64,000 nt of DNA from NCBI RefSeq assembly GCF_024521635.1, contig NW_026250406.1:620001-684000 (forward strand), given 5' to 3'. Source of the DNA: Tricharina praecox (taxonomy: Eukaryota). This document shows positions 17,416 to 53,330 of the stretch, one piece after another. The notes below the pieces were generated by a model that ran no database searches, was not told where the DNA came from, and was given only the letters and a program-made list of their open reading frames with translations. Numbering within the stretch: position 1 is the first letter of the stretch; each line of letters opens with the position of its first letter. The position numbers and the translations under genes were made by a program.

Positions 17416-18936
17416 CCATGAATTAGGTTTTGCGCCGGAAAGATCTTGCAGGCATTTGTTATTGTCCTGAAGTATTCAGCACTCGAATACCTGCTACCGT
17501 GCCGGAATGATTAAGCCGTTCGCTATTCGGTACTCGAATGGCGGCTATTGTATCAGCACGATTAAGCCATTCGTTATTCGCAATTCCTCCACGAAGTCAT
17601 CGATACTTAGTACTAATACAGTAGGACTATGCGAGCATGAGAACAGTCATCCCTGTTACAATATCTCACTATATCACTCGATCACACAGTCACGTGAACT
17701 ATAAGTTTCACAGGCCCTTCCTTCCTCCAAGTTCAAGCGGAGCGCAGAATACTGTCGTCAGATATGGGGCCAGTGTCTGGCAGCGACACCTACAGTATTT
17801 AAACGCCTTTTTCTCCCACCTACGGGGTTTAGGCTTCAACCTATCAATGATCAAACCACACGATCGATCGCTCCGGAAAATGGTAAATGCAGCTGCTTCC
17901 TTTGGGACGAACTACTTTCATTCACAGAGTGCGGAGGATATGCTGCAGCCTGTCGCTCATGCTCCGCCCCTTTTCTCTATCCTTCGCGCCAAACCCAAAG
18001 TTCCAAGGAGCACCCATGGCACTCGACCAGTCCACCGCGCACAACATCCTAGTCCTATGACGTCCTCCTAAAACTTCATTTCCTGAACATCTGGGAGGAA
18101 CAGATGACGTACACGCCAGGGCCCAGAACCATGTCCTCACCCAGCATCTGGGTCCGGACATGCTGGTCGAGCAACATGGCAGTCGGCTGGTTGGTTTTGA
18201 GGTCCGATCGATCCGCCAACGGCAAGCAGGAATTCCAATTGGCGCTCCTTATATCATTGGGATGTGGGGCTTCACTGTACTTTTGTGCGGGATCAGGGTA
18301 AAGCCAGGCGATCGGTCACTGCCAGGAATGTTCCTGTAGCTCGAAGCAGCATCCGATGACGACCGCACAGTCCGTACTCAACCGATCTCAGTGCTGTATG
18401 CTGGGTGCTCTTCTTCACTGCGCTACAGAAGACAACCCCACGGTCAAACACCAAAAAACACTTCGATCGTTGAAAGGATGCAGTCGAGCTCGCGATCAGC
18501 TCTGCAAGTCTCATCGCAGTTTGCGCGTTCATCCCGACAGTCACTCCATAAACATGGGCTTCGGATGAGGGGCTGTCTCGCTCCATAGTCGTAAGTGACT
18601 CGCAAGGTGTTTGATACCATCAGCAGCGTTACTGGAGCCACCTGGGATGGTCCGCCAATGACGTAACTTGCCTGCTACCTACCTAATGTGACTGCCACCT
18701 AGAGGGGAGCTGTTTGTATTTTTTCTATTGATTGGACATGGCGCTGACGCATCTGGTTCTTCCCGTCGACTCCATCCCATCCACTTCCACTCCACCTCAC
18801 TAACTTCCACTCCCCCTTACTCACTTTCACTCATCTCACTTACTTTCACTCCACCTCACCTACTTCCAACCCTCGCCCCCCCACCCCCACTCTAAACACA
18901 AAAACTACGATCACCACCAACTCTACCCTTGGCAAC

Positions 18937-19970
18937 ATCAACTTTGCAATCAACAATCCACTAGGATCGAAGCTCCCATCCGACAACCCGGAACAAAGCT
19001 CCTATCTTCGAATCACCTTATCTCTTCCTCTTCTCGCACCTTTCCCTCTCATCCCATTCAAATCCCCTTTATCATTGTCCTCATCCATTTCCTTTCCTTT
19101 TCCACCCCCGATCCATTTACCCACCTTTTCAACTTCCTGCTGTTTTTGCAATTGCAACTTGCCATCACAGCCATCACGCCATTGCGGTTGCCTTTGGGCT
19201 TCTTCTGATGATTTTACTCCTCGAAGAAACGAGCTATGACCGTGTCAATCGGTTCAATAATCCCCTTCACCCTGGAGCCTACTTCGAAAACAAGCTATTT
19301 ACCCTCTCGGGGAGGATGGGGTATGAGGCGGGAGGCTGGAGAAAGTTTTCTCAGACGGTTCTTGACATCTGGCTGGTCTCCCGACAGCCACAATTTCTCT
19401 TGCTATGTGAGTGCTCGTCAACTATTTGATTTTGAAGAAAACTGACGTCTTCTACAGTCATTTACCACGGTATGACGTACATGTGGACTGTCGGACGCAA
19501 TGGAACTTTGATTTCCTACCTAGTACCCCCAGTTTCAAAAGGAGGGTATGGGTTTGATACGGTCGGCCTTGGGTTGATCTACTTTGCACCCATTGTTGCA
19601 ATGATTCTTGGCGAGCTCTTCGGCCACTTCGTAAGTCACATTCTCGTCCCCTTCAGTTCGTAACGATAGGGCTAACATCATTCTCAAGTTCAACGACGCG
19701 CTCCAGAACCGATTCAGCTCTCCGCGGTATCAACTTTGCAACCAAGAATCCAATAGGATCGAAACTCCCACCCGACAACCCGGAATAAAGCTCTCATCTT
19801 CTCATCTTCTCATCTCTTCCTCTTCTCACTCCTTTCTCTCTGATCTCATTCAAATCCCCTTCATAATTGTCCTCATCCATTTCCTTTCCTTTTCCTTTTC
19901 AACTTCCTGCTTTTTTGAAGTTGTAACCTGCCATCACGGCACATCACTCCACTGTCCCACTGCGGTTGCC
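18937..19970 (+). repeat. ~250-bp diverged direct repeats (18937-19192 and 19729-19970) flanking the MFS fragment
   Basis: Both copies start ATCAACTTTGCAA, share TAGGATCGAA.CTCCCA.CCGACAACCCGGAA and ATTGTCCTCATCCATTTCCTTTCCTTTTCC, and end TGCGGTTGCC. Confidence 0.9.
19190..19715 (+). pseudogene. Internal fragment of an MFS transporter gene (DHA1/Hol1-like, ~TM6-TM8) with two intact introns
   Basis: Spliced reading AFGLLLMILLLEETSYDR..QFLLL/FIYHGMTYMWTVG..GGYGFDTVGLGLIYFAPIVAMILGELFGHF/FNDALQNRF. Introns 19407-19457 (GTGAGT..CTGAC..CAG) and 19631-19688 (GTAAGT..CTAAC..AAG). No N- or C-terminal part nearby. Confidence 0.85.
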
Positions 19971-20749
19971 ATCACGCATCACCCCGTTGTCCCACTGTGG
20001 GCTCAACAGCACTGCTACGCCAGCCCACTCCAGCCAGTAGCTAGGCTCGGTGTAGACTTACATTAGGTGGCAGTCGGGTGGGGGGGGGGGGGGGGGTGGA
20101 GATAGCAGAGATTGGCAGCACGGTAACTTATTGAATGTGGCTATGCATATTGGATAGAGTGGCTTGATCTGATTATGATAATGCTTTCATTGCTTTTAGC
20201 GGGGTCGTATGTGTCCTTATATGCCACTAGGCAGAATTATAATTACTGCATTAGGTGGGCCGGCGCGGCTTGAGAGGGACCGGCCGGTTGTTTTGTTAGC
20301 CGATTGTTTTTATTTCTGTTTCTTGTTGTTTTTCTTTTTATTTCTCTTACCAGCATCAAAATAGACAATCAACCCTCGCATAATCTCTTTTCACCGTGTG
20401 TGCTTTCGTTTATATCCCGCCTGCAGCCTGGAGGCGTGTTAGCCTCCGTCCTCACGTCATCAAACTCATGGTGGCCTCTCTGGCTCCTCAACTCCACTCT
20501 GGCGCATAAGCGTCTCTTCGGCGGTGGAGAAGGTCGGTACATGACGAAATATCTGGCGAGAAGATTGATTGAAGATGATGAAAGTTACAGTGCAAGCCGA
20601 GCTGGAGATCCACCCAAGCACTTCACTGGATGGTCTCCATGGTCAGAATCTCGCAGCTAAAGCCACAAAGAAGGCCCGCAACCCCCAAGGCAGTCGATGT
20701 ACACGGTACACCGACGGATCTCGGACAGACACCAAAGCGACCTGCGTCG

Positions 20750-20910
20750 GCAATCCTCAGCGACAATTCCGAATTCGGTCAGCTCACACCGGGAAACTCG
20801 CAGAAGTGGGATGCTACCGAGGGGACCCGCGGTACCTTCACCTTCACCCGCGGCGATGAAATCGTTGCACTGGCGAAGGCGAACGGCCAGCTCGTTCGCG
20901 GACAGTAAGT
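20750..20910 (+). pseudogene. Fragment of a GH10 endo-1,4-beta-xylanase gene
   Basis: AILSDNSEFGQLTPGNSQKWDATEGTRGTFTFTRGDEIVALAKANGQLVRG(H) fits the GH10 N-terminal motif (FGQxTPxNSxKWDATE..GQLxRGH). Ends at a GTAAGT donor (20905). No further GH10 sequence nearby. Confidence 0.88.
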
Positions 20911-21076
20911 CATCCGTCTGCCCCCATGACCCTGACCCCACACTCCTGAGCGGCGGTTAACGAGAATATCTTTCAGCACGTTGGTTTAGCACTCGCAGCT
21001 TCCGTCATGGTAGGACAACTAACCGTGGATGTGCTCCCCCACCCTGCAACCGAGAGCTGACAAGAATAAGGTTCTC

Positions 21077-21325
21077 ATGGGTATTCACCAGGGGGCCTAC
21101 GACGTGGAGTGCACGGCCATTGCCCAAGCTCTGCAAGCGGACGTCCATAGGCAACACACCCTGGGGCCTTGGCAGAGTTACCATCTTCACGGACGCGCAG
21201 GCGGCCATTAGAATAGTGACCCATTGTGCCTCCGGCCCCGGAAAGAAATACGAAACCCAGGCACGAAAGCACATCGCCACCCTCCGCCGGAGGGAGCCAG
21301 AGATCACCATCGAGATCGAATGTAT
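21077..21325 (+). mobile_element. Frameshifted RNase H fragment of a Tad1-clade non-LTR retrotransposon
   Basis: MGIHQGAYDVECTAIAQAL, then in another frame RVTIFTDAQAAIR..GPGKKYETQARKHIATLRRREPEITIEI. These are typical fungal LINE RNase H motifs. Confidence 0.8.
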
Positions 21326-21430
21326 GTGACGAGACCAGTGCAGGCAACAGCCCGAAAAGCCCATGGGCTGGGGAAACGAGAAGTCTGAAACAAGCTGTCA
21401 CGAACCCACACACCACAGACACTATGCAAT

Positions 21431-22179
21431 GTGTCCTCCTCCGCCTCTTCTCCTCTCGTCTTTTCTTCTCCATACTCACAACTTCTCCTCTCTCGCGCCG
21501 AACGGGCAGCCATAGCCTCCATTCTCACCACCATTTTCACTTCCCAAACCAAACATGCGATCATCACCCAATTTCTGACAGCTTTGGACCAGCTGGCTAC
21601 GGACGATGTCGGTAACGTCAACCACAATCAAGTCTCGTTCGCCAAGGAGCACAAGATGGCATTGCTCGAAAACATCGCTCCCACCGCCAACGATTCATTC
21701 TTCACGGACGAATCGGGCAGTAGGAGGACTGTGTTGCGGACACCAAGCTTTTGGATACGCTTTCCACGGCAGTGACGAACTACAAGTCCAAGAGAGGTCC
21801 CAGGTTCTTCTTCTCCAACAACACGCATACGACTGCGGATCCAACAAGCTCCGACGTGCGAATGAGGTGCAGGAGTGGCATACATATGTGGTATGTGAAG
21901 GGTGGTGTGGTCGGGATTTATGATCCTAGCAATGTAGCCAAACCACAGGCTATACAGTAGAGGGACATGAGGATGGTGCCGTTGGCACTGCAGTTTCTAG
22001 AGGCGCTGATAAAAAAGGGTATGAAGGTAGTGGAAGTTTGGATTGGGGGAGGAGGATATACGGAGGAAATGTGCAATGAGATGAGCCGTAGGTGGATGTA
22101 TGCAGAGGTGGTTGAAAAGGCAGGTGCGGAACTGGGCAATTGGGAGGAGAGGGGCTGGGAGAAGTTACGGGCGTTCTAA
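21431..22179 (+). pseudogene. Disrupted hypothetical protein gene
   Basis: Three ORF pieces (21431-21775, 21751-21960, 21967-22179) join via one frameshift and one in-frame TAG into a protein-like sequence (..VVGIYDPS..VWIGGGGYTEEMCNEMSRRW..). Confidence 0.5.
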
Positions 22180-23199
22180 ATGGTTGGAGAGAAAATGAGT
22201 GTATGAATGTGAGTGAAAAGTAATGATGTTGGTAGAAAAGGCGGTGAATGGAAGACGTATAAAAGAGAAGAAATAAAAGGCGACGAATGTAAAGTGTGGG
22301 AAAGAGAAGGAATGGAGGTTGGTGAATCAAACGTGAGTGAAGGAGAAGAAATAGAGGGCGGTCAATGGTATCACGGCTCACGAATGCTGCCCCTTCCTGA
22401 GTACTCTCAGTGTATCACTTGGCTGCCGGAACCACCTAACCGGGTCGTCGTAGATTAGGGCGGACCCTGTTGATATCAGAGGTTGCTAGCAGCCCTCAGA
22501 GTTCATTGCTAGCCTCCAATCTTTGGGAGCATGGTTTGGGTAAGAGTGAAGTGTCACGGAGTGCGAAGGGGTGGCGGAAGCGGGTTTGGGACGGAGATCT
22601 GGCGGCACTGATGTAGGCTACGCTGCGGGACAGGAGCAGACTGGGGTAGCGCAGCAATATACTATGGAAGTGGGGTATTCAGAGCAGGAGTGATATGGGT
22701 CCGGCACAGGCGGCAGGCCTGCGCTCGTGGGTAGGTTGCGCCGAGGATCGCTTTACGATCATCGGTCTCTTCGCAGACGAACGATGCAGCCAGTTATTCT
22801 TGGGCTTCCTCGCCATCACCCATGTGGGTATTGGGCAGACGGATCCCGGAGGTCGTCGAGGAGGCGTGGCATGTGAGGTATCGGAGTCGGAACCTAGGGA
22901 ATGAGGAAAAGGCAGGCGGTAAGGATGTGAGAAGGGGCGGAGAGCGCTGAGCGGCTGAGGTTGAGGAGCCAAGGTCACTCACGCTGTTGCTCCCGATACC
23001 GTCTTTTATAGCATCTCCTAAGGAAGAGACAGGTGACGAGGGGGTGAGGAGTTGGCCCCAACTTCTGAACAAGAGATAGCAGTGGCAGTTGAATCCTCGT
23101 CTTCTGCTGCTGCCAGCAAATGTGTCACCACTACACCACGCTACATCATCTTGGTATTCACCCGAAACGCGCCTTACGTACCGGTGTGGAGTCTCCCAA

Positions 23200-24660
23200 G
23201 CGGGCTCCGATTCCCCCCCCCCCCCCCCCCCTCTCTCGCCTTTGTATATCTTCCTCCTCATTCTTCCTAAACCACCTCTCCTTCTCCCTTCTTCCTACTC
23301 TACTTTCAACTTGCTCTCCCTCCCTTCCCCTCTTCGTATGTACCCCACCATCAATCTTACGATACCCTCTTACCACTCAACCATCCTCCATCACCCCCCC
23401 CCACCCCCCACCCGCCCACCTCATGAAAACTTCCTTATCTCTTAACATCACGATCCTTCATCACCCCTCTACGGGTAGAATGGCCGGGAAACATCTGCTT
23501 TTGAATAGCTGCGTCTATACAACTACCACAACCCATCCACCCTCTACCCGGCCCACCCCTCCTTTGCTTCTACCCAATCCACCCTTACTTTGCTCCTACT
23601 CAACCCACCCCTCCTCCTTTGCTTCTGAAATTCATCCATCTTCCCCTCATCGTCCCTCATCATACCTCACGACAACCCCCTCTGGATCAAGATCCCGCAT
23701 ACATCATTCTATCTTACCATCACTATCAATCACATCTCTACAGCCCCGATCCCGTCCCTCTCGACTGTCCTGATTACACACATTTCCCACAACCCACTCT
23801 CACATAAATTATGGCCGCCACTACGACTACTACCCACACACAGCCCTCCGGCCTACTTCTGTCCGCGTGATCTCCAAGACGACTACACCGTGCTCCACGG
23901 GTCCGACCCTGGAAGTCATTACCGACTAGCACTCCTATTCATGTTAGCCTCCTCACGCTGCTCGTCAGCAATTTGGCGGTCGAGGTTTCGTTCTATCTGA
24001 ACATCTTCGGTCTCCTGGGCCTACTTGCCGTCTGTTTGGCGGTCGAGGATAATCGCCGCATGGTCCACTATGCGGCGGTTCCCGGGTAGGATATTGAAGC
24101 ACAAGAGAGTCACAATGGTGGCAAAGAGGAGAAGAGGAGAAGAGGAGAAGACGAGAAGAGGAGAAGAGGAGAAGAGGAGAAGATGGTTTAGGAAGACGAG
24201 GAGATGATTTGACGATTGTTGAATGAATAGGAAGACGAGAAGATAATTTGATGAGAAGATGTATGATGAAGGAATGTGAAGACGAGATGATGAGATGTTG
24301 AGATGATGAATGATGAATGATGAATGATTGGGAAGACGAGCAGGGTGATGGGGAAGAGAATGAGGCTGTTGCGGGTCGCTGTTTTGTTCTGTCAATTTTA
24401 TCGCAGATAACTGCATCCTCAATGATTTTGTATTGTTCCGAGCTCTTGGCCACGCAACAGATAGTGGTTTCGCAGCTAGCCAGTGATCTACATTGTCCAG
24501 TCCAGCCCAGACTTTCCCGAAATATTTGCATCGGTGGCCGCTCATCAGCCAACATCTCCACTGTGGATCATATCTCCTTCCTCCTGTTTGTATGCTCCCC
24601 AACCTTCGTCCATATGGATCATCTCTGCTGGCCTCTCCAATGTACAATGACCAGTGTTTG
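23200..24660 (+). repeat. Repeat family R1 copy
   Basis: Same block order as the 15190-17010 copy. Conserved terminal block TTTTATCGCAGATAACTGCATC at ~24396-24417. Confidence 0.8.
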
Positions 24661-24896
24661 AACTGTTGAATATATGAGGTAGATAAACATGACAATGGTA
24701 TTCGATACAGCAGCAACATCGCGAGCAGCGAGCTCTCTCTATATACAAGCTTCATAGACTAGGAAATCTCTGCATCGATCCCTTCAGGATGTCGGTGTTC
24801 CGTCACCCGGGACCCGTCACCAGTTACCCGTGCTCGGGTACCTCACCAGAGTACACTAGGGACATCACGACCTCCGGACGTCCCATATTCTGACAT

Positions 24897-26582
24897 GAAC
24901 AAGTGCTCTCGTGATAGCTTAGTAGTTCTGTTGCACCACCAGCATTGATCATCATCTCGCTAAATGATCCAATTCAGGTACGTACTACATAGTAGCTGTG
25001 AGGGCATGCCCCGTTGTGCAGTCGCTCTCGGGCAGCGTTTCACTCGTCGATCGATGAGTGCCAAGTAGCATTGCATGCCTCGACGGCAGCGACAATCATC
25101 ACTAACGACTGAACGCCGATTGAAATCCAGATTCCAAGCACCGCGTAGGTTATGTCAAACGAAGCCTCTCCTCCCCCCCTTTCTATATCTTCCTCCCCTT
25201 TTCCCCAACCCACCATCTTCATCCTCGCTCTCCTTCGCCCTTCTTCCTACTCTACCATCAACACCCCTCCATCCTCACGAAAACTCCCTTATCTCTTACC
25301 ATAACCTTCCTCCACCTCTCTACATTCACACACATCCCCACTCCCCCACACAACCCCGAATTTCCTCTCCCCAGCCATTTCCACCAAACCAATACCACCC
25401 CCGATCAATCGCATATCGATCCCCCACTGATCCGCGAGATGTGCAACTCCCGTATCTCTTACCATCACCACGCCTCCATCGTCTCGACTGACGACAATAT
25501 CCCCACTCCATCATCCTCATGACAACCTGCTTATCTCTTTCCAACACTATCCTCCACCTCTGTGCAACCCCGCTCCCAGAACGTATGGCCGCCACCGTCA
25601 TCCACGCCTGCACCCCGGTCATTGTTTTCCCAGCTCCGCCCGCGACACGACTACGCCCTACCACCGTCTACAATGCGGCGGCTCCGGGCCCTAACTATCC
25701 ATCACCAATCATCTGACGAACGACACGAAATCACTCTTCCACTACTCGCCGTCGTTTGGCGGTCTAGGACGCCGCCCCAACCAGCGATGATGCAGCGGTT
25801 TCTGGCTCTGGAAGGTCTCAAATTTCAATTGGGCGGTCGAGCCGACGTCCGCACTGCCGATAATGCGGCGGCCCCAGTTCGAGAGATGGAATTACCAATG
25901 ACTCACAATGGTGGCGAAGGAAGATGGAGGCGATGGAGGCGATGGGGGTGATGGGAGACTAAGAAGAAGAGGAGGAAGCATCCTCCTTCGAACGTCGAAG
26001 ACACCACCGATGGGGTTGCAATGAAATGAATGGAGGAGGGGAATCGCAGCCTAGAACTTGGAGGAGGAAGATGAGAAGGACGTGATGATGATTGAATGAA
26101 TGGGAAGACGAGAAGACGAGAAGATGAGATGAATGATGAATGAATGTGAAGGCGAGATGTTGGGATTTTGAGATGATGAATGCTGAATGATGGATGGATG
26201 AGAAGACGAGCAAGCAGATGAGTATGATGGAGGGGAGGAAGGAGAGCAGGACAGTGGGGACAAGGATGGCAGGAGGATGTTGCGGGTGCTGTTTATTTGT
26301 TTTTCAATTTTATCGCAGATAACTGCATCATCAATAATTTTGTATTCTCCCGAGCTCTTGACGACGCAACAAATAGTATCTTCGCAGCCAGCTAGTGATC
26401 TACATTGTCCAATCCAGATTTTCTCGACATATTTGCACCGGTGACCGCTCATCAGCCAACAGCTCCGCTGTGGACCATCTCTCCTTCCTCCTGTTTGTAT
26501 GGTTCCCAACCTTCGCCGACACGGCTCTTTGCTGGCCTCTCCAAAGCGACCAGTGTTTCAACAAGTACTCTCGTGATAGCTT
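24897..26582 (+). repeat. Repeat family R1 copy, head-to-tail with the previous one
   Basis: AACAAGT(G/A)CTCTCGTGATAGCTT occurs at 24898 and 26560. 26280-26560 matches 24370-24660. Confidence 0.85.
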
Positions 26583-26977
26583 CGTACAAAATCATCGAAA
26601 GCCGGGCTCCGAATCACACGTCATCTCCTCGTTCCCCGATGATCACATACGCCCCATTTCAGCGCGATTAGCCTCAACACCGGCTTTCCAACCTGACCTT
26701 TCCCTCGGGACACCGAAAACTGTTCACCATGATCGGTCAAACTTCCAACTGATGAGATTTCCGCGCTAAATCGTCTACATACTCGCAGAATGTTGCAGTG
26801 CAGCACCGTGGCGATGCCGACGAGAGCGCGGATGGGCAGTGGGGTTATATATGGTAGAAAGAGCAACATTTACCACTTGGCGGTGGGCGTGAACGATTAC
26901 CGGTGAGGAGTGGACACGGGCACACAGGATCACTCGGCTGGAAATTGGGCAGAGCAGAAGTTCGGTCGCGGTTGAAC

Positions 26978-27033
26978 TTTCGCCATAGTCTAGATGGGCT
27001 GCATGCCAAATAAACTGAAGATCTCTCTATCCC
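26978..27033 (+). repeat. R2 motif copy
   Basis: TTTCGCCATAGTCTAGATGGGCTGCATGCCAAATAAACTGAAGATCTCTCT. Confidence 0.75.
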
Positions 27034-27469
27034 TTTAGAATCAGGCTCAACTCAAAAACACCGACATCTGGCAAGTAACTCTGTGTGGCTCGCGACAGCC
27101 CACCCTCGGGGGAAGTATGGAAAAGTACTTTGCAGTGCGCGAAGCCTCGATTTCACGATTTATCAGGTACATCTGACACAGTATTTATCACCTTTATTTA
27201 TCCTTCTCTAGGCTGTGGGATGTGGGATGTCTTTGATGAGATCTTCTGGCTTTTTAATGGGGGCGTTCTGACTCTCGAGCTATGTGTCGGCCTCTCTGGG
27301 AACTCTAGATCTCGAACAGTCGACATCGATGTTGTACTTCTCAGATGATCTGAAAAATATGAACAGAGATGATTGTGCAGAGAAACCAATGTGAGCAATT
27401 AAATCATTATCATAATTAGGTCAAGCCACTCAATCCAATATGCATAGCCTCATACAGTAAGTGAACTTC

Positions 27470-28230
27470 CTCCTCCTCCTCGTGCTCACCATCCTGTTCC
27501 CCTTCCTCCCCTCCATCGTCCTCATCTGCTTGCTCCTCTTCCCATTCATTCATCATTCATCATTCATCATTCATCATACATCTTCTCATCTTCCCATTAT
27601 CTCGTCTTCCCATTCATTCAATCATCATCAAGTCCTTCTCGTCTTCTCGTCTTCTCGTCTTCTCATCTCCTGATCATCGCCCGAGGCTTCCTCCTCCAGG
27701 TGAGTCTCTAGAATCATCCTCGGAGGTTTCTTCGAAGGTGGAGGCTTCCTCCTCCAAGTTCTAGGCTGCGATTCCCCTCCTCCATTCATTTCATTGCAAC
27801 CCCATCGGTGGTGTCTTCGACGTTCGAAGGAGGATGCTTCCTCCTGTTCTTCCTATTCTTCCATCACCTCCATCCCCTGCATCTCTCCCATCTCCCTTCG
27901 CCACCATTGTGGGTCATGGGAAATTCCATCTCCTCAACAGGGGCCGTCGCATTGCCGGCAGTAAGGGAGTCGTTCTCGTCCGCCAAATTGGCCACGGGTA
28001 GGGCCAGGAGGCCGAAGATGTTGAGGTAGAACGATACCTCGACCGCCAAATTGGCGACGACGACGGTGAGGAGCGCCAACGTGACTAGGGGGAGCGAGTC
28101 GATAACGGCCACGGGGAGGAAGGCGAGCACCATGAGGAGGTTGCCGATGGATTTGTTTTTTTCTTTCTTTTAATTGTATCGCAGATGACTGCATCATCAG
28201 GACTTCGTAGCGTTTCGAGCTCGCTGTCAC
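27470..28230 (-). repeat. Rearranged R1 copy; 27490-27960 is a close inverted copy of ~25850-26260
   Basis: About 95 bp are identical in reverse complement (TCCTCCTCCAAGTTCTAGGCTGCGATTCCCC...GGAGGATGCTTCCTC). The terminal block at 28150-28230 is in the opposite orientation. Confidence 0.85.
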
Positions 28231-28416
28231 CCAATATATGTAGAAGGCTCGTAACTGTACCACCAACGGCAGAACCTTCACTTTCGCATTTCTTCGCACA
28301 TCCTTCCATCCACGCAACCTCATCCCTGTCATCCTACAGAATAAGAAACAACCCTGACCCCCACCGTTTCTCCGTCGCGTCACCCATATTCTAATGGATG
28401 GAGACAAAAAAGATAA

Positions 28417-28521
28417 CTCCTTCGGGTGGGCTTGAACCACCAACCTCTCGATGACCGAACAACCACAGATGCGGTAACTAAGGTAACAGTCGAACGCGCT
28501 AGCCAATTGCGCCACGAAGGA
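28417..28521 (-). tRNA. tRNA-Asn(GTT), 31-nt intron 28453-28483
   Basis: Complete cloverleaf: acceptor TCCTTCG/CGAAGGA, D arm GCGC, anticodon arm TTCGA-CTGTTAA-TCGAG, T loop TTCAAGC, discriminator G, downstream T run. Confidence 0.95.
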
Positions 28522-30045
28522 TGTTTCATGTCTGTTGTCGGCAAAGCCCACTACAGAGAAATCTTAGATAAGCCACTTCTGATTCACCACTTATCGTGTG
28601 GTCCCACATCCCCGCGACGGGAGAATTGTTATCGTTTTATCGCTGAAGACGGCAGCATCGAGGAGTGATCGTCGCTATAATTGTCTCCACACCCGAAGTA
28701 ACTATTCTCGAGAGGTGCGACGGCATTTCCTGGAGGGGGCGTCATTGTTGATGTTGTTTCGCCATCTCGAAATGCAGCCCGCGACGGGGACCTACAGCCC
28801 ACAAACAGCATTCGGTGACTAGGCCTTTGGCCTTATCGAATGGACTTCCCGACACCCGCCACTTCCGTTGCATTGCACCGGCGTTGCCATTCATCGAAGA
28901 ATAACCGCGCCGTGTGTGACGGAGATGAGCATGTCCTGTCGGTCCTTTGGATGGAGGAGACGCCGAAACCGCGAAGTCCCTGCAGAAGCGTTTGGAAATC
29001 CTCACGAAGCTCGATTGCAAAGTCCTTCCAAGCTCCAAACCCTAGCACGCAGCTTCTTCGTCTGCATTAAGAGCATTCAATGATAGACTCTCAGGAAGAG
29101 ACTCACCTACCCTGCTTCTCTAGTACACTGTGCTCAGAGCGCACCAGCCCCTTCTGTAACAAAATTCGTGCTTCCGAATGATCTTCCTCGTGGCCTGGGG
29201 CTATCCCTCAGGATGCCCGCACAGAAACCGTCCGCTTCCCTCCGTATTGTGAGATCCTGCGGGCAAGGAACCCACACACGAAGATAGGCCTCTGCTCTTC
29301 GTGCATCGATCTCTCCATGTAAATCTTGTCTCGTTTCATCCGAATAGTGGTTTTCTCCAGTAGTCCGGCTTGTGTTTATTCCAACCCTCGGCACCGTAGC
29401 CAATCAGCGTCTGCTCAAAATAAGAGTTGTTTGCTTACCGATCGGCCGGTGGAATCTCGCAAGAGGAGACCTTCTCTGAATTTTCCACAAGCTGAGAACG
29501 TATGGCATGGGAATTCCTTCCACGGTCGTGTCCCAATTGTAGGTGAAGATGATCTCCCTCAGATTCTCACTTGGAGGCCCCGATGCTCCCATCGAAGTGG
29601 CCATTCCCATAGTTGCAAAGCTGCTTATAATCGCAGGTATTGTTTCTCCACCGCCACGTCCCGTTTTATTGGTGACCAAAAAAGCGTTCTACGAAACTGA
29701 CGGAATTGCTGTAGCCTCGGAATACCTTTGTACTCTGTCTCACCGGACCGGGCAGTAAATGCTTCCAATCCGGCCGTCGCAACAAGATCGAAAAGGAGAA
29801 CATTGACCTCCACAAACCACCGACCGCCTATGAGGACTCAGGAGATAAAGCGCAGCCGTTCGAAAAATTTGCCTGATCTAGAATCTATTAGGACAAAATT
29901 CTCGGGTATTATGCGATACGCCCTCCAACTCACCCACACATTTGCTGGGTATTTGCGATGGCCAACACCAAATTTGCATCTCCCAGCGCCGGCAAGTTGG
30001 AACACTGCCCCCAGCAAAACGAAATGCTCCACGAGCAAAAGTAAA

Positions 30046-30141
30046 CTCCTTCGGGTGGGCTTGAACCACCAACCTCTCGATCGCCGAACCCCAGTAGTGG
30101 AATTAACAGTCGAACGCGCTAGCCAATTGCGCCACGAAGGA
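30046..30141 (-). tRNA. tRNA-Asn(GTT), 22-nt intron 30082-30103
   Basis: Exons identical to the 28417 copy. TTTACTTTT follows. Confidence 0.95.
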
Positions 30142-31253
30142 TGTTCGATGTTCCAGCTCGAAATTGGCTCATATGCCGTATTGTAAGACGGTTCTGCGAA
30201 GAAGGAGGCTGTACCGCGGCTGGTTGAATAAGATTTTGAAGTCAGATTGGGCTTCTTAACTAGGAGAGTTCATCGAGTGAGGCTAACCATGATCATGATG
30301 ATAAGCCACAATGGCACAGTGACTTCGCCACACGTCCAGCGCCGCCAACCTGCCGGAGTTCGTCCGCACTGAAGCGCTTCTTCGCAGTACAGGAAAGCGT
30401 GATGTCCAACAATCAACCGAAAGCGGCTTCGAAATAGCTCAGAGACATTTGAACTCGTCCTTGTAATGGGACCAGCGCGTAGCAGCGGAGATGTCGACGT
30501 GACTTGGCGAATGTTCCGAACGATATTACTCGTACTGCTACTGGGTGACGGAGAATATGACCTTTTGCTGACACCCCGGCTCCGCTGAAACGCGTTGATG
30601 ACTCGGAAGTAGAGCGTGCTTGTGGGAACTCGAGCACATCTTCTGTCCGCCCGGGAGCGTCGGAGTATGAATGCGTCAAGCGTGGAGTTCTCGCGGTTGA
30701 TTGACGAAGGGTAAGGCTGTTGGCACAGCCCAACACAGATGGTGGCCCCGATCTCCTTCCAAGGCCGGAGCTTATTGAGATGTAGCGCGCGTGCCGGTGT
30801 AGTAGTTTCCATATAACCGCGAGTGGCTGGCGGGAAAACGAGTGAACGAGTGGCCGCGGCCCGCGGGAGGGAGAATATTGAAGGTGTCTGATCTCTGCCT
30901 TTACGCCACAGTTGGCACGATCGCCGCAACACGTAACAATATATCAGAACTACTCCGTATCATATTAGCTCCACGTGTGAAAGTTTTCGGTTTGAAGGAA
31001 GTTTCGAAACATACTCAGATACTCCTCAAGAGCGTTACGTCGGATCCAATCCATCTTAGCGGGATGTCGCCTACTTGATGGACAAGTGCAGTTTGTGGAA
31101 CCCTCATTAAACTCCGACAATGCGTGTCGACTCGTACTCTACGGCGAACACAGGTACAGTTGTCGACGACATCGCGATCTGAGGAGATCCATCGATGTAG
31201 CAGTCGGTCCGTGTGGAATGCGAGTTGGTAAGGTGCCAGCGACCGGTGATCTC

Positions 31254-31314: not shown

Positions 31315-32352
31315 GACCGGCGATCTACTCCCACATCACTATCGGTATGGTTCTTAGTGGATGGGCTGTGGATCCACTGCACAATCTTTTTAGAAAGGAC
31401 ACAAGCAGAGGCCGCCCAGGACTTCGAACGCCGCGGCGATCGTTGAACACCATTCGACGCAGACGTTGATGTGGTGGGATACTAATATCTTCTTCACTAA
31501 TCTGTCAGCATCCGTTCCCGTTCGGTGATTCTGTATCCTCGGAGAAATTACAGACGTCCAGGTCAGTAATCTAATTTCCGTGCTGGCACCTATCACTTGA
31601 CGGTCCGTGCTAGAGATGATGTCCAGAAGGCGTGTGGGATGAAGATTGGTGATGTCATTAAAGTTCAACGATGATAGCGATTGGGGTGAAGTGATGGGAG
31701 AGAAGGATCCACAGTTGGAGAACGGCGGGGAGGGATTGAAAGGGGGATCGCTAGATGAAGCGAGCTGGAAGGGATAGCATGAGCCGTCGTAGATTGACAG
31801 GTGGGTGGTTGGATGTGTGAATCGTAATTCTGTGGTTACGGCGATGTGAGTGTTTGTATCGGTGGAAGTGGGGTAGTAATAGATGGTGGTGAGGGTTGAT
31901 ATGCGCAATACATACGACCTCCAACCCCGCCTCAGAAGCTAGGACGAACGTGGCAGAAAATCCATGCACGCGTCTGAATGCAGGCCCATCATGCCAAAAG
32001 CAGTGACTCCCTGGCTCCGGATTCTTCGCTCATTCGGGCCGGAACGGGCGGGAGTAGTGCCGTCAATTTCCGACTGGCCTACGGATGACGATGCCTGAGA
32101 GTAGGTGCGATTTCTGCCAACTCCAAACAAATTCGCAGTGCGCGCAAATCAACCTCTGTATACTACATTACTTGTGTACAATCTCCCCCCTTCATCAGCT
32201 GTGATGACCGTACTAATTCAATGACCACCATAGCTTACACCGTCAATATCGTACGCACCAATTTCTCCCCTCAGTAGTCATTGATGGTATGATACATCGT
32301 CGACCACATCCAAAAACCTAATAGTGTGCAACACAAGCCTCTCTCACAAGCG

Positions 32353-32439
32353 TCCTCCGTGGCGCAATTGGCTAGCGCGTTCGACTGTTAAACCCCAAAG
32401 GCAATCGAGAGGTTGGTGGTTCAAGCCCACCCGGAGGAG
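32353..32439 (+). tRNA. tRNA-Asn(GTT), 13-nt intron 32391-32403
   Basis: Same exons with acceptor variant TCCTCCG/CGGAGGA. TTTT downstream. Confidence 0.95.
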
Positions 32440-33203
32440 CAATCTTTTGCATTTCAGGCTGAGAAGGAATGTTTTTTTCGGCGGGATATTGGGGTGACAG
32501 AGAATTCGGACTGCGTGGCAGTGGATGTGTCGCGGGGGTCGCTACGTGAGACGGGACGGATCCGTTTGGTTAATGACGAGAAGGTTGAATACTCGAGGGA
32601 GAAAAACATACATCTATGGCAGTGGGAATAACTGCCACGAGTCTGAAACGGAGAAGAGGAGGGGTGGATCTCGTTTAGCTGCAGAAAAGACAGTGGGAAG
32701 CAAACCAAGGCAAGAATCCCGATGCCACGAGGTGAATTTTCAAGATGCTAACCCAACTAGGTACGCTGTTGGGGGTGGATGGCCGCTCGCTTTCCGCCGG
32801 ATGTCACACGGGGTCGCTGAAAGTTTGTAATTATCAGGTGAAAATCACACACCGGAGTTCTGGAAAGAGAGACCTTTAACGGCCGATGGATAATTTTCGA
32901 GGGAACTTCAACATATCGCCGCGTTCACTCAGCCTGCCGCCACAACTGGTAGTGAAGTAGGGTCACTGTTAATAGCAATCATGCAGAGTTCCGGGGTGAG
33001 GGAACATCTTCGAAGCGAGTCGGAAACGCGCGATTGTTTCGATACCTGGCCCACTATCAGGTAGTAGAAAGAGTCCACGTTACTGGTAATCACGTGGACG
33101 ACCACGCAGCAGCGAACAGCCGCGCCCTGCGTGTGGTTTGTAAAGTGGTGCCAAGAGAATTTTGGAGGTCAATTGATTACAGTATTATCCAAGACATCAA
33201 ACA

Positions 33204-33300
33204 TCCTCCGTGGCGCAATTGGCTAGCGCGTTCGACTGTTATTCCCACTTCTGTAGTTTCGGCGATCGAGAGGTTGGTGGTTCAAGCCCACCCGGAGGAG
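33204..33300 (+). tRNA. tRNA-Asn(GTT), 23-nt intron 33242-33264
   Basis: TCCTCCG variant. TTTCTTTTTT terminator immediately downstream. Confidence 0.95.
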
Positions 33301-34147
33301 TTTCTTTTTTCTCATGTCTGTTCTGCTGGAAGGCTGTGTTTTGAAGGTGCGAGTTAGAATATTCTAGATGGAGGAGCCAAGATGTGTCACGAGTGTAGAA
33401 TCTAACTTCAAAACCTCGATCGTGTATGTAAGCAGGCCACCTATTGCGGTTACGTGTGGCTACCAAGTAGGATTCAGCTGCTTTTCTTAATTCTACATAG
33501 GCTGTCGGCGCTGCAGAGTGTACGAAGTCTGCATGGGTTCCTTCGCCCTGCTTTTAGTCGTCCCGCTTGACATGTTCTAAGTTTCCTATCACTGCTGTAT
33601 CCTGCACTGTGGGGCTTGGGGCCGGGGGAGGGGCTCATCCATTTTGTTCCGCCGCCCGCGCGCAGCCTTGCTAGACTATGTACCTGGTATAACGAACTCT
33701 CGAAAGAAAGCATTCCTGCCCGCTTACGAGGGAGAGATAATCAATTTACTGTCGCATGCGGCCTGTCTAAACTTCAGCACGCCGTGATTTTGCTTAACAA
33801 ATGGTGGCTTCTGAAATCACGTGTTACGAGGGATCGAGTGATCATATGTGCCAATGGTTTGTGCTCCTGCTTCTACCCAGTTACACACTTTGGTAGTGGC
33901 TACAAATGTGTGATGAGGGGTTATTATTCCGTGTGGTGCCCTTTGCGACGTTTTGAAGCAGGAATTACCTACCAGGGGACTTCGCCATCCCTTGATCGTG
34001 CACTAATCGTTCGAACCAGCCTCGGTGGTCGTTGGTGTTGGTCGTTCGACAACACAAACGAAACCCCGAGAAAACTCACCCCCCGAAAAAGTGAAAACAG
34101 CACATCCGCCAGGCTAACCGCGCGACAGCATCACATTCGCCCACGAA

Positions 34148-34913: not shown

Positions 34914-35250
34914 TTACTTCGATCTAGGAGTTTTCATGCTCCGAAATACAGTTTTCGTACGTGTGTGAATGCCCTCAAATACCCTCAAATGGGTGCGACC
35001 TGATTGTTGTATCTTATCGGCGTGACAGACTGACGAGGCGATGCGATACCACACCGATGCTCCCTCAAGAATAACGGCGTGGTTCGATTCATTAGTCTTC
35101 GAATATCTCCAGTCTTTGTGTCTTAAGTGTTTTCTCTTCATGTCGAGCAACAGAACCACCAGTCGCCCAGAAACACCCACCTCCATCGCCGTTGATATCC
35201 CCCGCCCTAGGCGCAAAAAATGAACTTCCGCGTCGGAAACAAAAGAGAAA

Positions 35251-35348
35251 CTCCTCCGGGTGGGCTTGAACCACCAACCTCTCGATGTCGAATATTCACC
35301 AGAGTGAAGTTAACAGTCGAACGCGCTAGCCAATTGCGCCACGGAGGA
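35251..35348 (-). tRNA. tRNA-Asn(GTT), 24-nt intron 35287-35310
   Basis: TCCTCCG variant. TTTCTCTTTT downstream. Confidence 0.95.
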
Positions 35349-36361
35349 TGTTGCATGTTGGAGCTAGCAGAGTGACAGCCATTAAACGTCTAGCTCAGAA
35401 GCTTGATTATAACGTCTAGATCTGATTGGAAACCATGGGAGCAAGAAGAAATTGCCGCAGAAACATTCCGAATATGCACGAACAGTTGACACAAGGTGGT
35501 ATGCCGCGAATAGTTGGTGTGAATATTACACACCGCACGGCAAAGCCAGCCAGGTTATTGTGTCGGAGAGGATGGACACCGAGCCTAATATTTAAGCCGA
35601 GATGAGTTTCAATCTGCTTCCTAGCTTTCCGCTCATGTTGATTCTTCCTGACCCGTTCTATTCTCCTGACTGCTGGAATCAATGGAAAGTTTGTCGTTCA
35701 AGGTTCGGTGGTGCTCTGTTACTTCATTTTTAAGCAACGACATCCACGTTAAATAGTCCGAATTTCCAGGACCGGGCTTGCTGTATCGCGGGAACGTCTG
35801 CTATTATAGTTGTTCGAGCGGTCGGCAAATAATACTTTTGAACACTGATTCTACATACATACAGCCGATTGCCGTGGCCCTGGAGGTCGATGGTAATCGG
35901 ACGCGACAGTCCTGTCATTTGCGACGAAGGCGGAACTAAACCCTCGTTGCGGTGTTGCCTCCAGAGGACTCCACGCAGTCACTTTCATCATGAGGTGCTA
36001 CACTACTGATCTTTGTGGTGGTCACTCACGCTGAATCACTCAGGGGATCTTAATAGTCTGTTCAATGTGTGTACCATTATGAGTCACTCGCCCATAACAG
36101 TCCACTCCTGCGGAGATAGATTCCCAAAATACATGAACGGTGAAAACAAATTGTATAACTATATTAAAGCGTGCATCCTGACACATACTCTCTATGCACG
36201 AAATTAATACTTCCTTACGGATCGTACGGCCGCGCTTTCTTCAATGCAAAGCTGGGTTCCTCCAAGGTATGGTAGGGTTCGACCCTACCAGGGTCAACCC
36301 TAAGAAGGTTCATCCGTCTCGGGTTAGCCTTGAACACCTGTCTCGCGTATTGCTATACGTC

Positions 36362-36855: not shown

Positions 36856-36892
36856 TATAATACGTCGCGCATAACAAAACAAGAAAAAAGAA

Positions 36893-36980
36893 TACACGAG
36901 GCGGGATTTGAACCCACGTCTCCGTCGGCCTTCGCCTGTCGGTTGGGAGGACGGCATGCTAACTACTGCACTACTCGTGT
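36893..36980 (-). tRNA. tRNA-Gly(CCC), atypical, 16-nt intron 36928-36943
   Basis: ACACGAG TA GTGC AGTAGTTA GCAT G CCGTC CT CCC A [intron] C GACGG AGAC GTGGG TTCAAAT CCCGC CTCGTGT A, followed by TTCTTTTTT. All four stems pair. Confidence 0.8.
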
Positions 36981-47399: not shown

Positions 47400-48000
47400 G
47401 CACGCGTCAGGTGTGTCTTCGGAGATTTCCTCATCATCACCTCTTCGCTGACCACCTGGGACAGACAAAGCAGACAGTGCTCTTCAACGAAGCAGAAGCA
47501 CTCGACTTCACAGTCACCATGGACGAGGAACTCACGGTTAGAGCACCGAGCGCAAATGCCGGGAGCCCTCACCCCCAGGGCTCTCGCTGTACACGGGTGG
47601 ATCCCGGAACCACGACTCACGAGTTAAAGGCGAACGAATGGGCCAAGCTAGCAGCCAGCGACCCCACCAATCGCGGACTGAAGGGCCCCCGCTACCTGAA
47701 CCAGTACGGCACCCGATCACTGCCATGGTACCACCCCCATCACTCGCATACCTGAGGCACGGAATCAGGAAATCCAAGTTGCAAAACCCCAAGGCATTGG
47801 CTGACCCCTGAGTCACCAAGATGTATCGGTAACACCATAGACCTTGCTAGAGACCCGACCAGATCCCAGCCATGGGCCATTGCCCCCAAGCACCCGGCCT
47901 CAAGATTCGACCAGCTGAAGACACAACACCGTCCTCCGAAGCCTGGAGGTGCGGCAAAGGGACGCACTGACGACCGCTTCGGATGGTGCAACTGCATGAT
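47400..48000 (+). mobile_element. Degenerate LINE ORF1 (gag-like) relic
   Basis: PRALAVHG..NRGLKGPRYL..WRCGKGTH remnants across frames. The nucleotides around CCC.AGG....CG.TGTACACGG also match 20682-20706, just upstream of the GH10 and RNase H pieces. Confidence 0.4.
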
Positions 48001-48934
48001 TCTAGCCCAGGAGACTTGGAAGACCCGACACCACTTGGCAGAGACTGTGGGCAGATCTTCCGACAGAGCCAGGGCGGGGTAAGGCGTGCTTCAAGATCCG
48101 AGGCTTTTTCGCAGACGAGCGGTGCAATCAGGCCATCCTAGATTTTCTCTCCTCCAGTGCTGTGAGCAGACAGATCCTAGAGGCCGCTGAGGAAGATGCA
48201 GTAAGAGAAGTGACGGGGTGGGAGCTCAGGGAGCGGAGAGAGTGAGAGGCGGAGGTGAAGCAAGAGTGGGATGAGGAGGGTGCTTAGGTCAGGTAGCCGG
48301 GGTCACTCGCTGTTCCTCCCGGGTTCCCGGACCTTCGTTCATGATCATTGGTGGGATCCCCTGATGATGAGGCATGAGGGAAGGTGGAGTAGGGAGACTC
48401 CTGGGCGAGAAAGAGGAAGGTGGTGCGCTTACTATCACTTCCCTGATGTGCTCCATCTTCATTCCTAGGAGAGGCGGGCGAAGGGTAGGGGAAGCGACAC
48501 CGAGCCGCTCGACGAAAGTCGTGTTTTAGACTGGGGCGTGAAAACGGAGGATATTGGTGGACAATGCCATGATCTAGATAGCTCGCATGCAATCAATGCG
48601 GAAAAGAAAAGCCTATTCGTTGATGGCCGCTGAGATTTGCCTGCTCGAAGAAACAAATTTTTATACCTTCTTCCTAGATTCCCACCATATCTCCGAAACA
48701 GAAGAAAAAGCCATGCCGCGAAACGTAATCCTAAGAAACAGTAACAAATAGCAGCGAAAAGACACGAACATGCAACGAGAAACAGATGTGTAGTTGGTGA
48801 AGCAGAGCGAACATTGATCGTCTCAAGCGTATAGACCGAAGGACGATTGGGAAGCAAAACAAACGAAAGGACAGGTAGGGGGCGCTCGAAAAGCAGACAA
48901 TCAAGCGGGTTAAAACCAGAAGATCGAGCCGACA

Positions 48935-51837: not shown

Positions 51838-51930
51838 AGAATATCTCATTATTCTATTTGCTAGAATATCTCATTATTCTACTTGCTAGAATATCTCATT
51901 ATTCTACTTGCTAGAATATGCCATTATTCT
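51838..51930. repeat. 25-bp tandem repeat x3.7
   Basis: AGAATATCTCATTATTCTACTTGCT; copies 2 and 3 are identical. Confidence 0.9.
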
Positions 51931-52088
51931 CCGTTCTTCTTCCCCCTTCTCCCATCATAGGTAGAGTGTATGGGTTAACAAAGGTATGAAATGTTCGTGG
52001 CACATATTTCTGGCTGACTGCTTCGTAATATTGGCGCGTGAAGAGGACACTGGAGCCCGATAAACGGTGGACACAGTGTGGATGATGA

Positions 52089-53330
52089 ACCAGATCATCT
52101 GTCTGGCAAAACACCAACACAGGACCCAGGTCCCATTGACAGTCATCTACCAGATCAACTGGCGGAAATAGGGCTGGGTATATACCCAAAGCCAAGGATC
52201 TAATCAGAGTCAATCCGCGACAAAGTCAGGTCGTGTTAACATCAAAGGTGGTAGCCCGTTATCGCAGGCGCAGCGCCGAAGGCGTCCACGTTCCAGATGT
52301 CGCCAAAGGGACTATAGTAACCCGAAGAATATCAGCACATGCGGTCAAAAACATTGTCAGGCAAGCAGAGACAACGTAAAGGAACTCACCATAAAATTCC
52401 CCTTTCAGAATCGGCCAAAAGAAAAGTTCCTCGTGTTGCGGAAGATAGTACCATTAGTGACCATCTCGCCGTTGGGAAGTTTGATATTGTTGTCCTCGAC
52501 CAGGACACGGTAACCCTCGGCGGACAGCTTGGTATCGGCGAAGCTCAAGATGGTTTTTCTCGCCTTCGCCAGATGCACACACCATAGCCCTTTGCGGCCG
52601 CCTCCGCGTCTTCAAGCTTCACTCTGGCGGCGATCCAGTGTGCAACAGTCACAACCATCTCACGACGGTTGGTGTTGCTCCTGAAGGCGACGCTATGGAT
52701 TCGAGCATAGTCCCGAAACCCCGCACCCCCGCACCCCCTGCACCACGATGGTCGTGAGGTTGGGCCCAGCTGGCCCATCCTCATCGCCGCCGCAGTGGTG
52801 TCAGGCCAGACCAGATCAACTGGCCGGCCAGACACCAAAGGCAGGACCTAGGTCCTTCTGGCGGACATTGACCAGATCAACAGGCAAACATCCCGCGGAG
52901 ATAGGCTCCAGGTCCTGCTGACGGCCGCCTACCAGATCAACTGGTAGGCATCACCTTTGGTGTTGCCACTAAAGGTGGGGAGGCGTCCACTTCCCAGTTT
53001 CCCCGAAGGGACTAGAAAAACCCGACAAATGTCAGCACATGAAGTCAAAGACATCGTCAGACAAACGGAGACGACGTAGAGAAACTCACCATAAAATTCC
53101 CATCTCAGAATCAGCCGGCGACGGCCGGCCGGATTCTTCATAATGGAAGCGTAGTGTCGCCACCGCATTCGATTCCTGTGTGCATGGCGACGTGGAATCT
53201 TCCGTCTCCCCGTCCAGATTGAATTGGTCCACGGCGTGCTGAATCTGCTGTGCGTAGACTGGCACACTTCCCGCAACCCATAGGCGTACTCTGTGGAGCT
53301 CGCCACCGTCTCATATTAGCGCGCTCCGGG
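52089..53330 (-). pseudogene. Decayed gene with a duplicated intron-exon block (52089-52415 and 52810-53115) and PVDLV peptide repeats
   Basis: Two homologous 78-nt introns (52312-52389, 53012-53089; GTGAGT..GCTGAY..TAG) exactly 700 bp apart, both splitting DSE.GILC|PFG. ACCAGATCA motif x5. In-frame stops. Confidence 0.6.
52432..52578 (-). pseudogene. Internal fragment of NAD-specific glutamate dehydrogenase (Gdh2/GdhB type)
   Basis: VHLAKARKTILSFADTKLSAEGYRVLVEDNNIKLPNGEMVTNGTIFRNT fits the fungal NAD-GDH segment LAK.R..I..FD.SKLS..GYRVLV...NV.LP.GE.V.NG..FRN.FHL (recalled). C/G-ending codons. Similarity stops on both sides. Confidence 0.8.

Follow-up and report, generated by a model that had tools for sequence, protein, structure and literature searches.

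Unspliced fragments of three unrelated genes in a repeat-rich window of Tricharina praecox as probable break-repair scars

Filler DNA, or "gap patching" by synthesis-dependent strand annealing (SDSA), was reportedly described in grass genomes by Wicker et al. in 2010. In the accessible parts of two reports on grass genomes, gene fragments are placed as filler DNA in the course of SDSA repair, often beside mobile elements (PMC3445842, PMC4423477). Comparable outcomes are known from other eukaryotes. Templated insertions of ~10 to 1000 bp are described at chromosomal breaks of budding yeast (PMC12214859, excerpted; see also the excerpts of PMC11724301), tandem duplications of ~100 bp to 10 kb in Caenorhabditis elegans helq-1 are ascribed to aborted SDSA intermediates end-joined by polymerase theta (PMC8654963, in the sections available), and the class 2 templated sequence insertions of humans are presented, in the text available, as break patches without target duplications (PMC5110952). 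Here, we describe a 64-kb stretch of the genome of the pezizomycete Tricharina praecox (contig NW_026250406.1, positions 620,001 to 684,000; hereafter, the window) that contains internal, intron-bearing pieces of genes for an MFS transporter and a GH10 endo-xylanase and an internal piece of a gene for an NAD-specific glutamate dehydrogenase (GDH). With moderate confidence, we interpret these pieces as break-repair scars, i.e., filler DNA or templated insertions. The structures combine known outcomes of break repair; the type of scar is a known one and is unusually clear here. No description of such patches, either in Tricharina or elsewhere in the Pezizomycetes, came up in a limited literature search, which is no proof of absence.

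The likeness to grass filler DNA, as far as the cited extracts go, lies in the copying of unlinked genes or gene fragments to repaired breaks, which yields non-collinear pseudogene fragments and leaves the donor intact. However, the grass cases are plant events, usually linked to a transposon being inserted or excised, whereas the present ones come from a fungus and include at least one patch at the junction of a 250-bp tandem duplication. The insert sizes seen here (147 to 526 bp) are within the yeast range, and the available text on yeast likewise features nuclear donors from other chromosomes and an analysis of junction microhomology. The yeast insertions are experimental, arise at an induced break and are raised in mutants, whereas those of T. 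praecox are old, fixed and natural; in the excerpts of PMC12214859, no flanking tandem duplication is described. The repeats found here (256 bp and ~330 bp) fall within the range of the helq-1 duplications, but the insertions covered in that excerpted source are short and templated from the break flanks, in contrast to several hundred bases taken from an unlinked gene. With the human class 2 insertions, going by the accessible part of that report, the scars share a patch from a distant locus, the absence of target-site duplication and poly(A), and end-joining features, the GH10 piece being the best fit. Those patches, however, are held to be RNA derived, whereas the introns retained here favor a DNA template.

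The sequence searches covered the 64-kb window, and donors and relatives were compared as proteins. Donors were sought by searching each suspect open reading frame (ORF) against a protein collection, with longer proteins asked for. Each piece has one full-length donor gene in T. praecox, located on a different contig from the window (Table 1), and tblastn searches of the window with these proteins bear out the three internal gene fragments that the first-pass annotation had proposed, at the positions it gave. As the donor sequences (P0015, P0002 and P0020) are intact and full-length elsewhere, the pieces have been copied, not moved. No further part of any donor was detected in the window, where all other tblastn hits had E values of ≥0.009 and were of low complexity. 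All piece ends fall inside exons. Three stretches, all of the GT..AG type, interrupt the pieces where neither the donor proteins nor their orthologues have a break. They are best taken as retained donor introns, which points to a template of DNA or unspliced RNA. The earlier statement that the MFS introns and the GH10 donor site are kept is thus correct, the retained material amounting to two MFS introns and the whole 72-nt GH10 intron. The sizes proposed for the MFS (~520 bp) and GDH (~147 bp) pieces also agree with the 526 and 147 bp observed, but the GH10 piece, at 261 bp, is larger than the ~155 bp suggested. Similarly, the reading frames are free of stops in the MFS and GDH pieces, as claimed, but not in the GH10 piece, which carries one TAG. 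Four local direct-repeat pairs of at least 130 bp bracket ~2.35 kb of the 64 kb, and two of the three fragments lie inside such intervals, which is not a chance arrangement (P ~0.004, by our own arithmetic). The MFS-flanking and GDH-flanking pairs are unrelated to each other, and neither the repeats nor the inserts have a further copy within the window.

The MFS piece (positions 19187 to 19712) corresponds to residues 278 to 421 of its donor, with 120 of 139 residues identical. In the tblastn search, residues 278 to 413 of P0015 align to 19187-19645 (E = 3e-65), and the match continues past the second intron to 19712. As the first-pass annotation had it, the piece lies between direct repeats of ~250 bp; these share 202 of 233 aligned bases, with 21 transitions, 10 transversions and 32 gap columns. 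The left repeat runs up to the patch, and both copies end in GCGGTTGCC, beyond which the right copy passes into unique sequence and the left copy into MFS codons. The GTTGCC at the left junction doubles as the Val-Ala codons of the donor; judged from the donor protein, the switch point would lie within at least 4 and up to 6 or 7 shared bases. At the other end, the gap between the last MFS codon and the right repeat core measures 16 nt (19713-19728), or zero if the repeat starts at 19708.

A neutral-substitution simulation converts the 19 differing residues (of 139) into a divergence of ~0.067 per site (0.04 to 0.10), and the two repeats differ by 0.146 pairwise, or 0.073 per lineage. The donor state is shared with the outgroup at 8 informative sites and the fragment state at 1 (10 sites are uninformative), and by this comparison the changes lie on the fragment lineage. 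The anatomy and the matching ages fit a single event comprising a local re-copy of ~250 bp and a 526-bp ectopic copy at its junction. For this piece, then, duplication plus templated insertion, as originally suggested, suits the data: the insert is flush with both copies, shares GTTGCC with the repeat and is of the same age. The annotated protein P0014 (BZA05DRAFT_388308, 249 aa, 19208-20063) is a chimeric model in which the MFS scrap is read into the right repeat copy.

The GH10 piece (20750-21010) represents residues 124 to 186 of its donor and is identical to it except for one stop codon, a TAG at 20987-20989 where the donor has TGG (Trp); in tblastn, P0002 matches 20678-21010 (E = 1.5e-32). 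Repeats flanking the piece were looked for in the window and not found, so that a duplication around it, as the proposed process would have it, receives no support. Instead, the piece interrupts the part of a decayed non-long terminal repeat (non-LTR) retroelement that codes for RNase H; the element is a long interspersed nuclear element labeled LINE A in Table 1. The ORF at 20961-21326 has 120 relatives at E ≤0.001 in a representative library, and the RNase_H Pfam domain is present in 13 of the 20 that were scanned; a search of the Atlas likewise pointed to RNase H for the ORF downstream of the GH10 piece. The extent of the homology was traced by tblastn with five relatives and by a hidden Markov model (HMM) of 97 relatives. 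To the left of the piece, weak but collinear matches occupy 20656-20745 and include the motif YTDGSRTD at 20707-20730. To the right, homology extends from 21005 on and is strong at 21068-21320 (HMM E = 6e-28 for ORF 20961-21326). At the DNA level, the left part is supported by a match of 20616-20706 to 47496-47596, in a second remnant, and the 18 nt after 20706 agree with that remnant at 14 positions if a 9-nt local duplication is allowed (our own reading). Farther downstream, 22750-22995 and 48088-48321 are 61% identical. The residues that flank the insert are next to one another in relatives or separated by a few codons, and the TGG that ends the GH10 piece is also a Trp codon where the retroelement homology resumes (21005). 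RNase H homology on both sides and near-adjacent flanking residues together indicate a near-clean insertion in a decayed retroelement, which was either already decayed at the time of insertion or decayed later.

From its RNase H start to its C-terminal motif, LINE A is ~1.2 kb longer than its relatives. The GH10 piece plus a 30-bp extra stretch account for ~290 bp of this excess, and the remaining ~0.9 kb lies in 21416-22734, where the ORFs have no PDB match and nothing exceeds the Pfam cut-off; this extra DNA may hold further patches from unrecognizable donors. The second remnant of the same retroelement (47453-48321, plus strand) lacks the RNase H core, and its YTGGSR motif (~47590-47607) stands within 20 bp of sequence that is normally ~110 residues further on. 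The annotated protein P0001 (BZA05DRAFT_416067, 240 aa, 20639-22176), which is listed with a GH10 domain, is a chimeric model in which the GH10 scrap is joined by splicing to sequence from the decayed RNase H and to unassigned DNA. Both P0001 and P0014 are assigned to a contig of 1,721,661 bp and match the window exactly. A similar chimera of gene scrap and retroelement is seen in another genome: P0070, a 269-aa relative of the RNase H, joins a tyrosinase fragment (Pfam profile positions 170 to 202 of 214) to mid-RNase H, the fusion following the retroelement C-terminal motif.

The GDH piece (52432-52578, minus strand) matches residues 703 to 751 of its donor, with 46 of 49 residues identical (tblastn E = 3e-21); at all three differences, the donor state is shared with outgroups. 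Its flanking repeats are degenerate. Overall, 52089-52416 and 52810-53116 are 67.7% identical over 331 columns, with a core (52278-52416 versus 52979-53116) in which 113 of 138 positions agree and a poorer block that holds a short internal motif two to three times per copy. This motif, of ~14 nt and reading PVDLV on the minus strand (52074-52171 and 52793-52950), blurs the alignment register. No PDB match was found for ORFs in the right repeat.

With a single change in 63 codons, the GH10 piece has a divergence of ~0.007 (at most ~0.04), as against ~0.067 for the MFS piece and ~0.03 substitutions per site for the GDH piece. Because the three pieces differ in age, they do not stem from one event and perhaps not from one mechanism; by these estimates, at least two separate events took place within 34 kb, and probably three. 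The proposal of a single duplication-plus-templated-insertion process that builds mosaics therefore holds in part: the MFS piece fits it, but the GH10 piece was inserted without duplication, the GDH piece is a doubtful case and the ages differ.

TABLE 1. Coordinates of the gene pieces, their surroundings, donor genes and other features of the window
Feature	Position in window	Strand	Details
MFS piece, exon part	19187-19406	+	
MFS piece, intron	19407-19457	+	51 nt
MFS piece, exon	19458-19630	+	
MFS piece, intron	19631-19688	+	58 nt
MFS piece, exon part	19689-19712	+	
Left MFS direct repeat	18937-19192	+	256 bp; weaker similarity may start at 18916
Right MFS direct repeat	19729-19974	+	246 bp
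GH10 piece, exon part	20750-20904	+	155 nt
GH10 piece, intron	20905-20976	+	72 nt
GH10 piece, exon part	20977-21010	+	34 nt
LINE A, left part (before/at RNase H start)	20616-20745	+	DNA similarity to 47496-47607; weak collinear protein/HMM matches
LINE A, rest of RNase H	21005-21416	+	With stops and frameshift
LINE A, ORF2 C-terminal end and 3' part	22734-22995	+	P0040 residues 275-306 at 22734-22829, E = 0.003
Left degenerate GDH repeat	52074-52416		
Unassigned DNA sharing the gap with the GDH piece	52579-52792		
Right degenerate GDH repeat	52793-53116		
Donor, MFS transporter			P0015, 570 aa; contig of 869,811 bp
Donor, GH10 endo-xylanase with CBM1			P0002, 409 aa; contig of 3,203,600 bp
Donor, NAD-specific glutamate dehydrogenase			P0020, 993 aa; contig of 658,227 bp
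Retroelement RNase H region	20.6-21.4 kb		
Retroelement ORF2 C-terminal matches	14841-14963, 24897-24980, 26454-26588, 47453-48221		
GFA-domain gene	5644-6606	-	Pfam
ATG29_N	~34.1-34.5 kb		Pfam
tRNA genes	28400-28531, 30030-30151, 32347-32450, 33194-33316, 35235-35365; also 36893-36980		

Beyond the anatomy of the pieces, their donors, retained introns, sharp ends and relative ages, we infer a repair pathway and junction microhomologies. A broken end in repeat-rich, gene-poor DNA would prime synthesis from an unlinked gene, and once a few hundred bases of genomic sequence had been copied together with their introns, the end would be rejoined. Such patching would have happened at least three separate times. 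In the MFS case, the same event would also have re-copied ~250 bp of local sequence and so left the patch flush between two direct repeats, the outcome expected if the extended end was joined back upstream of the break; the pathway could be either a replicative template switch or SDSA that was aborted and completed by end joining. The target of the GH10 patch would have been a dead retroelement that lost or gained hardly any sequence of its own, and the GDH piece would have been patched in with, or after, another stretch at the edge of an older local duplication. After insertion, the pieces would have decayed as pseudogenes. The junction bases compatible with the donor proteins are GTTGCC on the left of the MFS piece and TGG on the right of the GH10 piece.

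Several observations weigh against this interpretation. The GDH piece had been described as lying between direct repeats of ~300 bp; a degenerate pair of ~320 bp is indeed present, but the piece is flush on one side only. It stands 15 nt from the left repeat and is separated from the right one by 214 to 231 bp of other DNA, for which there was no Pfam, Atlas or PDB match and no second copy in the window. In addition, its divergence of ~0.03 per site contrasts with 0.104 per lineage for the repeat core, and the probability of three or fewer residue changes in a piece of this length is 0.007 at d = 0.10 and 0.021 at d = 0.09. The piece thus looks younger than its flanking repeats; either the patch was added to a junction already formed by an older duplication, or mutation is faster in the repeats. 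For the GDH piece, the duplication and insertion in one event that had been envisaged fares badly at the repeats' divergence (P = 0.007), and we consider it doubtful.

A second difficulty is presented by 20678-20749, immediately upstream of the identical GH10 block, where 24 codons resemble GH10 residues 100 to 123 in frame (8 of 24 identical). The anchored in-frame score of this segment was matched in none of 5000 shuffles and at 2 of 18,252 positions of the window, and PDB xylanases also align over it; nonetheless, it lies on retroelement-derived DNA and is unexplained. It could be due to chance, to homeology that steered the template choice, or to an earlier GH10 scrap, part of which was replaced by conversion. 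When residues 61 to 123 of GH10 were aligned with 20400-20749 with frameshifts allowed, the score was 28, compared with a mean of 26.9 and a maximum of 38 for shuffled DNA, so that free local alignment lends no support to a longer decayed GH10 sequence. Two points of method belong here as well: nucleotide identity, exact breakpoints and microhomology are read from donor proteins, and the repeats are single-copy as judged within this window. Finally, the entire repeat-MFS-repeat structure lies between the arms of a perfect 12-nt inverted pair (18690-18701 and 20064-20075) that occurs nowhere else in the window; the right arm is followed by a G tract of ~24 nt (20075-20098).

Such a pair is what might be expected if the pieces were cargo of a Pack-MULE-like element, a Helitron or another DNA transposon, or of a small terminal-repeat retroelement, with the direct repeats being parts of the element, an explanation that we hold to be quite unlikely. 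The region is rich in mobile-element remains, and capture of gene fragments by Helitrons is documented in fungi in the accessible portion of PMC4289320. According to the same source and to PMC3445842, both in extract, Pack-MULE and Helitron cargo, too, consists of internal, intron-bearing gene fragments that are located in repeat-rich regions and can enter annotations as chimeric genes. The defining termini of these elements, however, were found neither at nor around the pieces, which leaves the Helitron and Pack-MULE capture named in the first-pass annotation without support. Long terminal inverted repeats are absent, and the 12-nt pair is not adjoined by a target-site duplication. A perfect pair of this length is expected ~0.1 times per 2-kb region by our own arithmetic, and two pattern matches occurred in 2 of 100 shuffles of the window; the pair is not far from what chance would give. 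No other inverted repeats were found at the pieces, and none around GH10 or GDH. Helitron termini have a 5' TC and a 3' hairpin with CTRR and are inserted between A and T; the piece ends lack these motifs, distant element ends not having been searched systematically. A Pfam scan of 434 ORFs of at least 65 aa revealed no transposase, Rep or helicase/Helitron domain. Miniature LTR elements (terminal-repeat retrotransposons in miniature, or TRIM-like elements) have LTRs running from TG to CA, carry a primer-binding site behind the 5' LTR and are accompanied by a duplication of 5 bp, and repeats of 250 to 330 bp around an insert of 390 to 540 bp, as observed here, fall in their size range. The repeats around the pieces nevertheless have no TG start or CA end, and coding sequence directly follows the left MFS copy, where the primer-binding site should be. 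Neither the repeats nor the inserts are seen again within the window, and the two repeat pairs have nothing in common, which also argues against transposon cargo.

The retained introns bear on a different possibility, that the patches are RNA derived, either through reverse transcription of unspliced transcripts into breaks or through a template jump of the reverse transcriptase during retroelement copying. All three donors are transcribed genes, local retroelements encode reverse transcriptase, and the GH10 piece lies inside a retroelement in the same orientation. In P0070, a tyrosinase fragment is fused to this RNase H, and break repair with a reverse-transcribed RNA patch is how the human class 2 insertions are explained in the available text of PMC5110952. 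We nonetheless assign this possibility a low probability. All three testable intron positions are unspliced, two of them in one 526-bp piece, and there is no poly(A) and no transcript 3' end. In the GH10 case, the reverse transcriptase would have had to leave the retroelement RNA and return by coincidence to nearly the position it had left, an outcome that follows automatically from insertion at a break. Moreover, the MFS and GDH pieces are not beside retroelement sequence. An origin as LINE-mediated retrocopies (processed pseudogenes) was rejected, given the three introns kept, the internal position of the pieces and the lack of poly(A).

Whether the pieces could instead be deletion remnants, i.e., dispersed whole-gene paralogues of which deletions and element insertions have left internal stubs, was judged mainly from their ends. 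Past five of the six ends (both MFS ends, the downstream GH10 end and both GDH ends) there is no in-frame continuation, the best extension score being 0, which 3000 of 3000 shuffles reach; a frame-shifted extension past the same ends scores at most 6, a value reached by 216 of 3000 shuffles. The sixth, upstream GH10 end is ambiguous. A decayed rest of each gene in situ, the observation named in advance as speaking against capture, was thus looked for and not seen within the window, apart from the 24 GH10-like codons at 20678-20749, which could be an older remnant. Decay and rearrangement of the region, with ~0.9 kb of extra DNA in the retroelement around the GH10 piece and the loss of the RNase H core from the second remnant, are compatible with deletion remnants. 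Even so, five sharp ends with no decayed continuation at the piece's own divergence, the absence of other donor parts from 64 kb, the flush position of the MFS piece between duplicated local sequences of matching age and the clean splitting of a retroelement domain by the GH10 piece make this account improbable; it would require three unrelated genes each to have been duplicated whole at this place and then trimmed from both sides.

An assembly artefact (chimeric reads or a mis-join) is barely plausible: the match of the GH10 piece to its donor protein in all but one codon is, on divergence alone, compatible with a recent or artificial origin, but 19 of 139 MFS residues and 3 of 49 GDH residues differ from the donors, the GH10 stop is absent from the donor, every piece has two clean junctions inside continuous local sequence, and the flanking duplications have diverged. 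The pieces, repeats and retroelement remnants show no signature of repeat-induced point mutation (TpA/ApT, 0.48 to 0.79; (CpA+TpG)/(ApC+GpT), 0.95 to 1.35), and an origin as mutated duplicates of that kind was rejected.

If the pieces are break-repair scars, they amount to a clean natural record of how, in a wild fungus, break repair copied segments of distant genes; the usual evidence for such repair comes from induced breaks in yeast, repair mutants, tumors and grass genomes. Through the matching ages of its parts, the MFS structure would then allow the 526-bp ectopic copy and a short tandem duplication to be traced to a single event; for old events, such a link can seldom be made. P0001 and P0014, the annotated "hypothetical proteins" that include two of the three pieces, are chimeras of gene scrap with repeat or retroelement sequence, and such loci thus inflate gene counts and domain censuses. 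A broader and, in our estimation, rather unlikely extension is that T. praecox has a standing habit of mending breaks in repeat DNA with unspliced copies of several hundred bases from expressed genes, sometimes re-copying 250 to 330 bp of local sequence. The donors might then be chosen via transcription-linked structures (nascent transcripts or R-loops) or via chance homeology of the kind hinted at by the junction of the GH10 piece and the retroelement. Were this so, patches would be common genome-wide and would seed annotated chimeric reading frames, and homology-dependent silencing systems would gain short targets derived from genes.

The window has a G+C content of ~51% throughout. Among the 434 stop-to-stop ORFs of at least 65 aa, Pfam hits above the cut-off were confined to GFA (53.3 bits), GH10 (43.8 bits) and ATG29_N (27.1 bits), and we therefore regard the window as poor in recognizable genes. 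The Pfam scan missed the MFS and GDH pieces and is thus an insensitive screen for further scraps; around the pieces, 108 ORFs of at least 30 aa searched at E ≤1 likewise gave nothing above the cut-off. Repeats are abundant, several of them being remains of non-LTR retroelements (Table 1). The blocks 11835-16213 and 23664-28110 have in common a complex set of direct and inverted repeats of 72 to 89% identity, which includes retroelement ORF2 C-terminal remnants and C/T-rich low-complexity sequence.

A five-copy "repeat family" of ~125 bp in the middle of the window is in fact a cluster of intron-bearing tRNA genes, with near-identical exon halves and variable middles. ARAGORN calls three of these copies, as tRNA-Asn(GTT) and two tRNAs with odd anticodons that are probably due to a mis-parsed intron, in addition to a tRNA-Gly(TCC). 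A tandem repeat with a 25-bp unit, 3.7 copies and 95% matches is located at 51838-51930.

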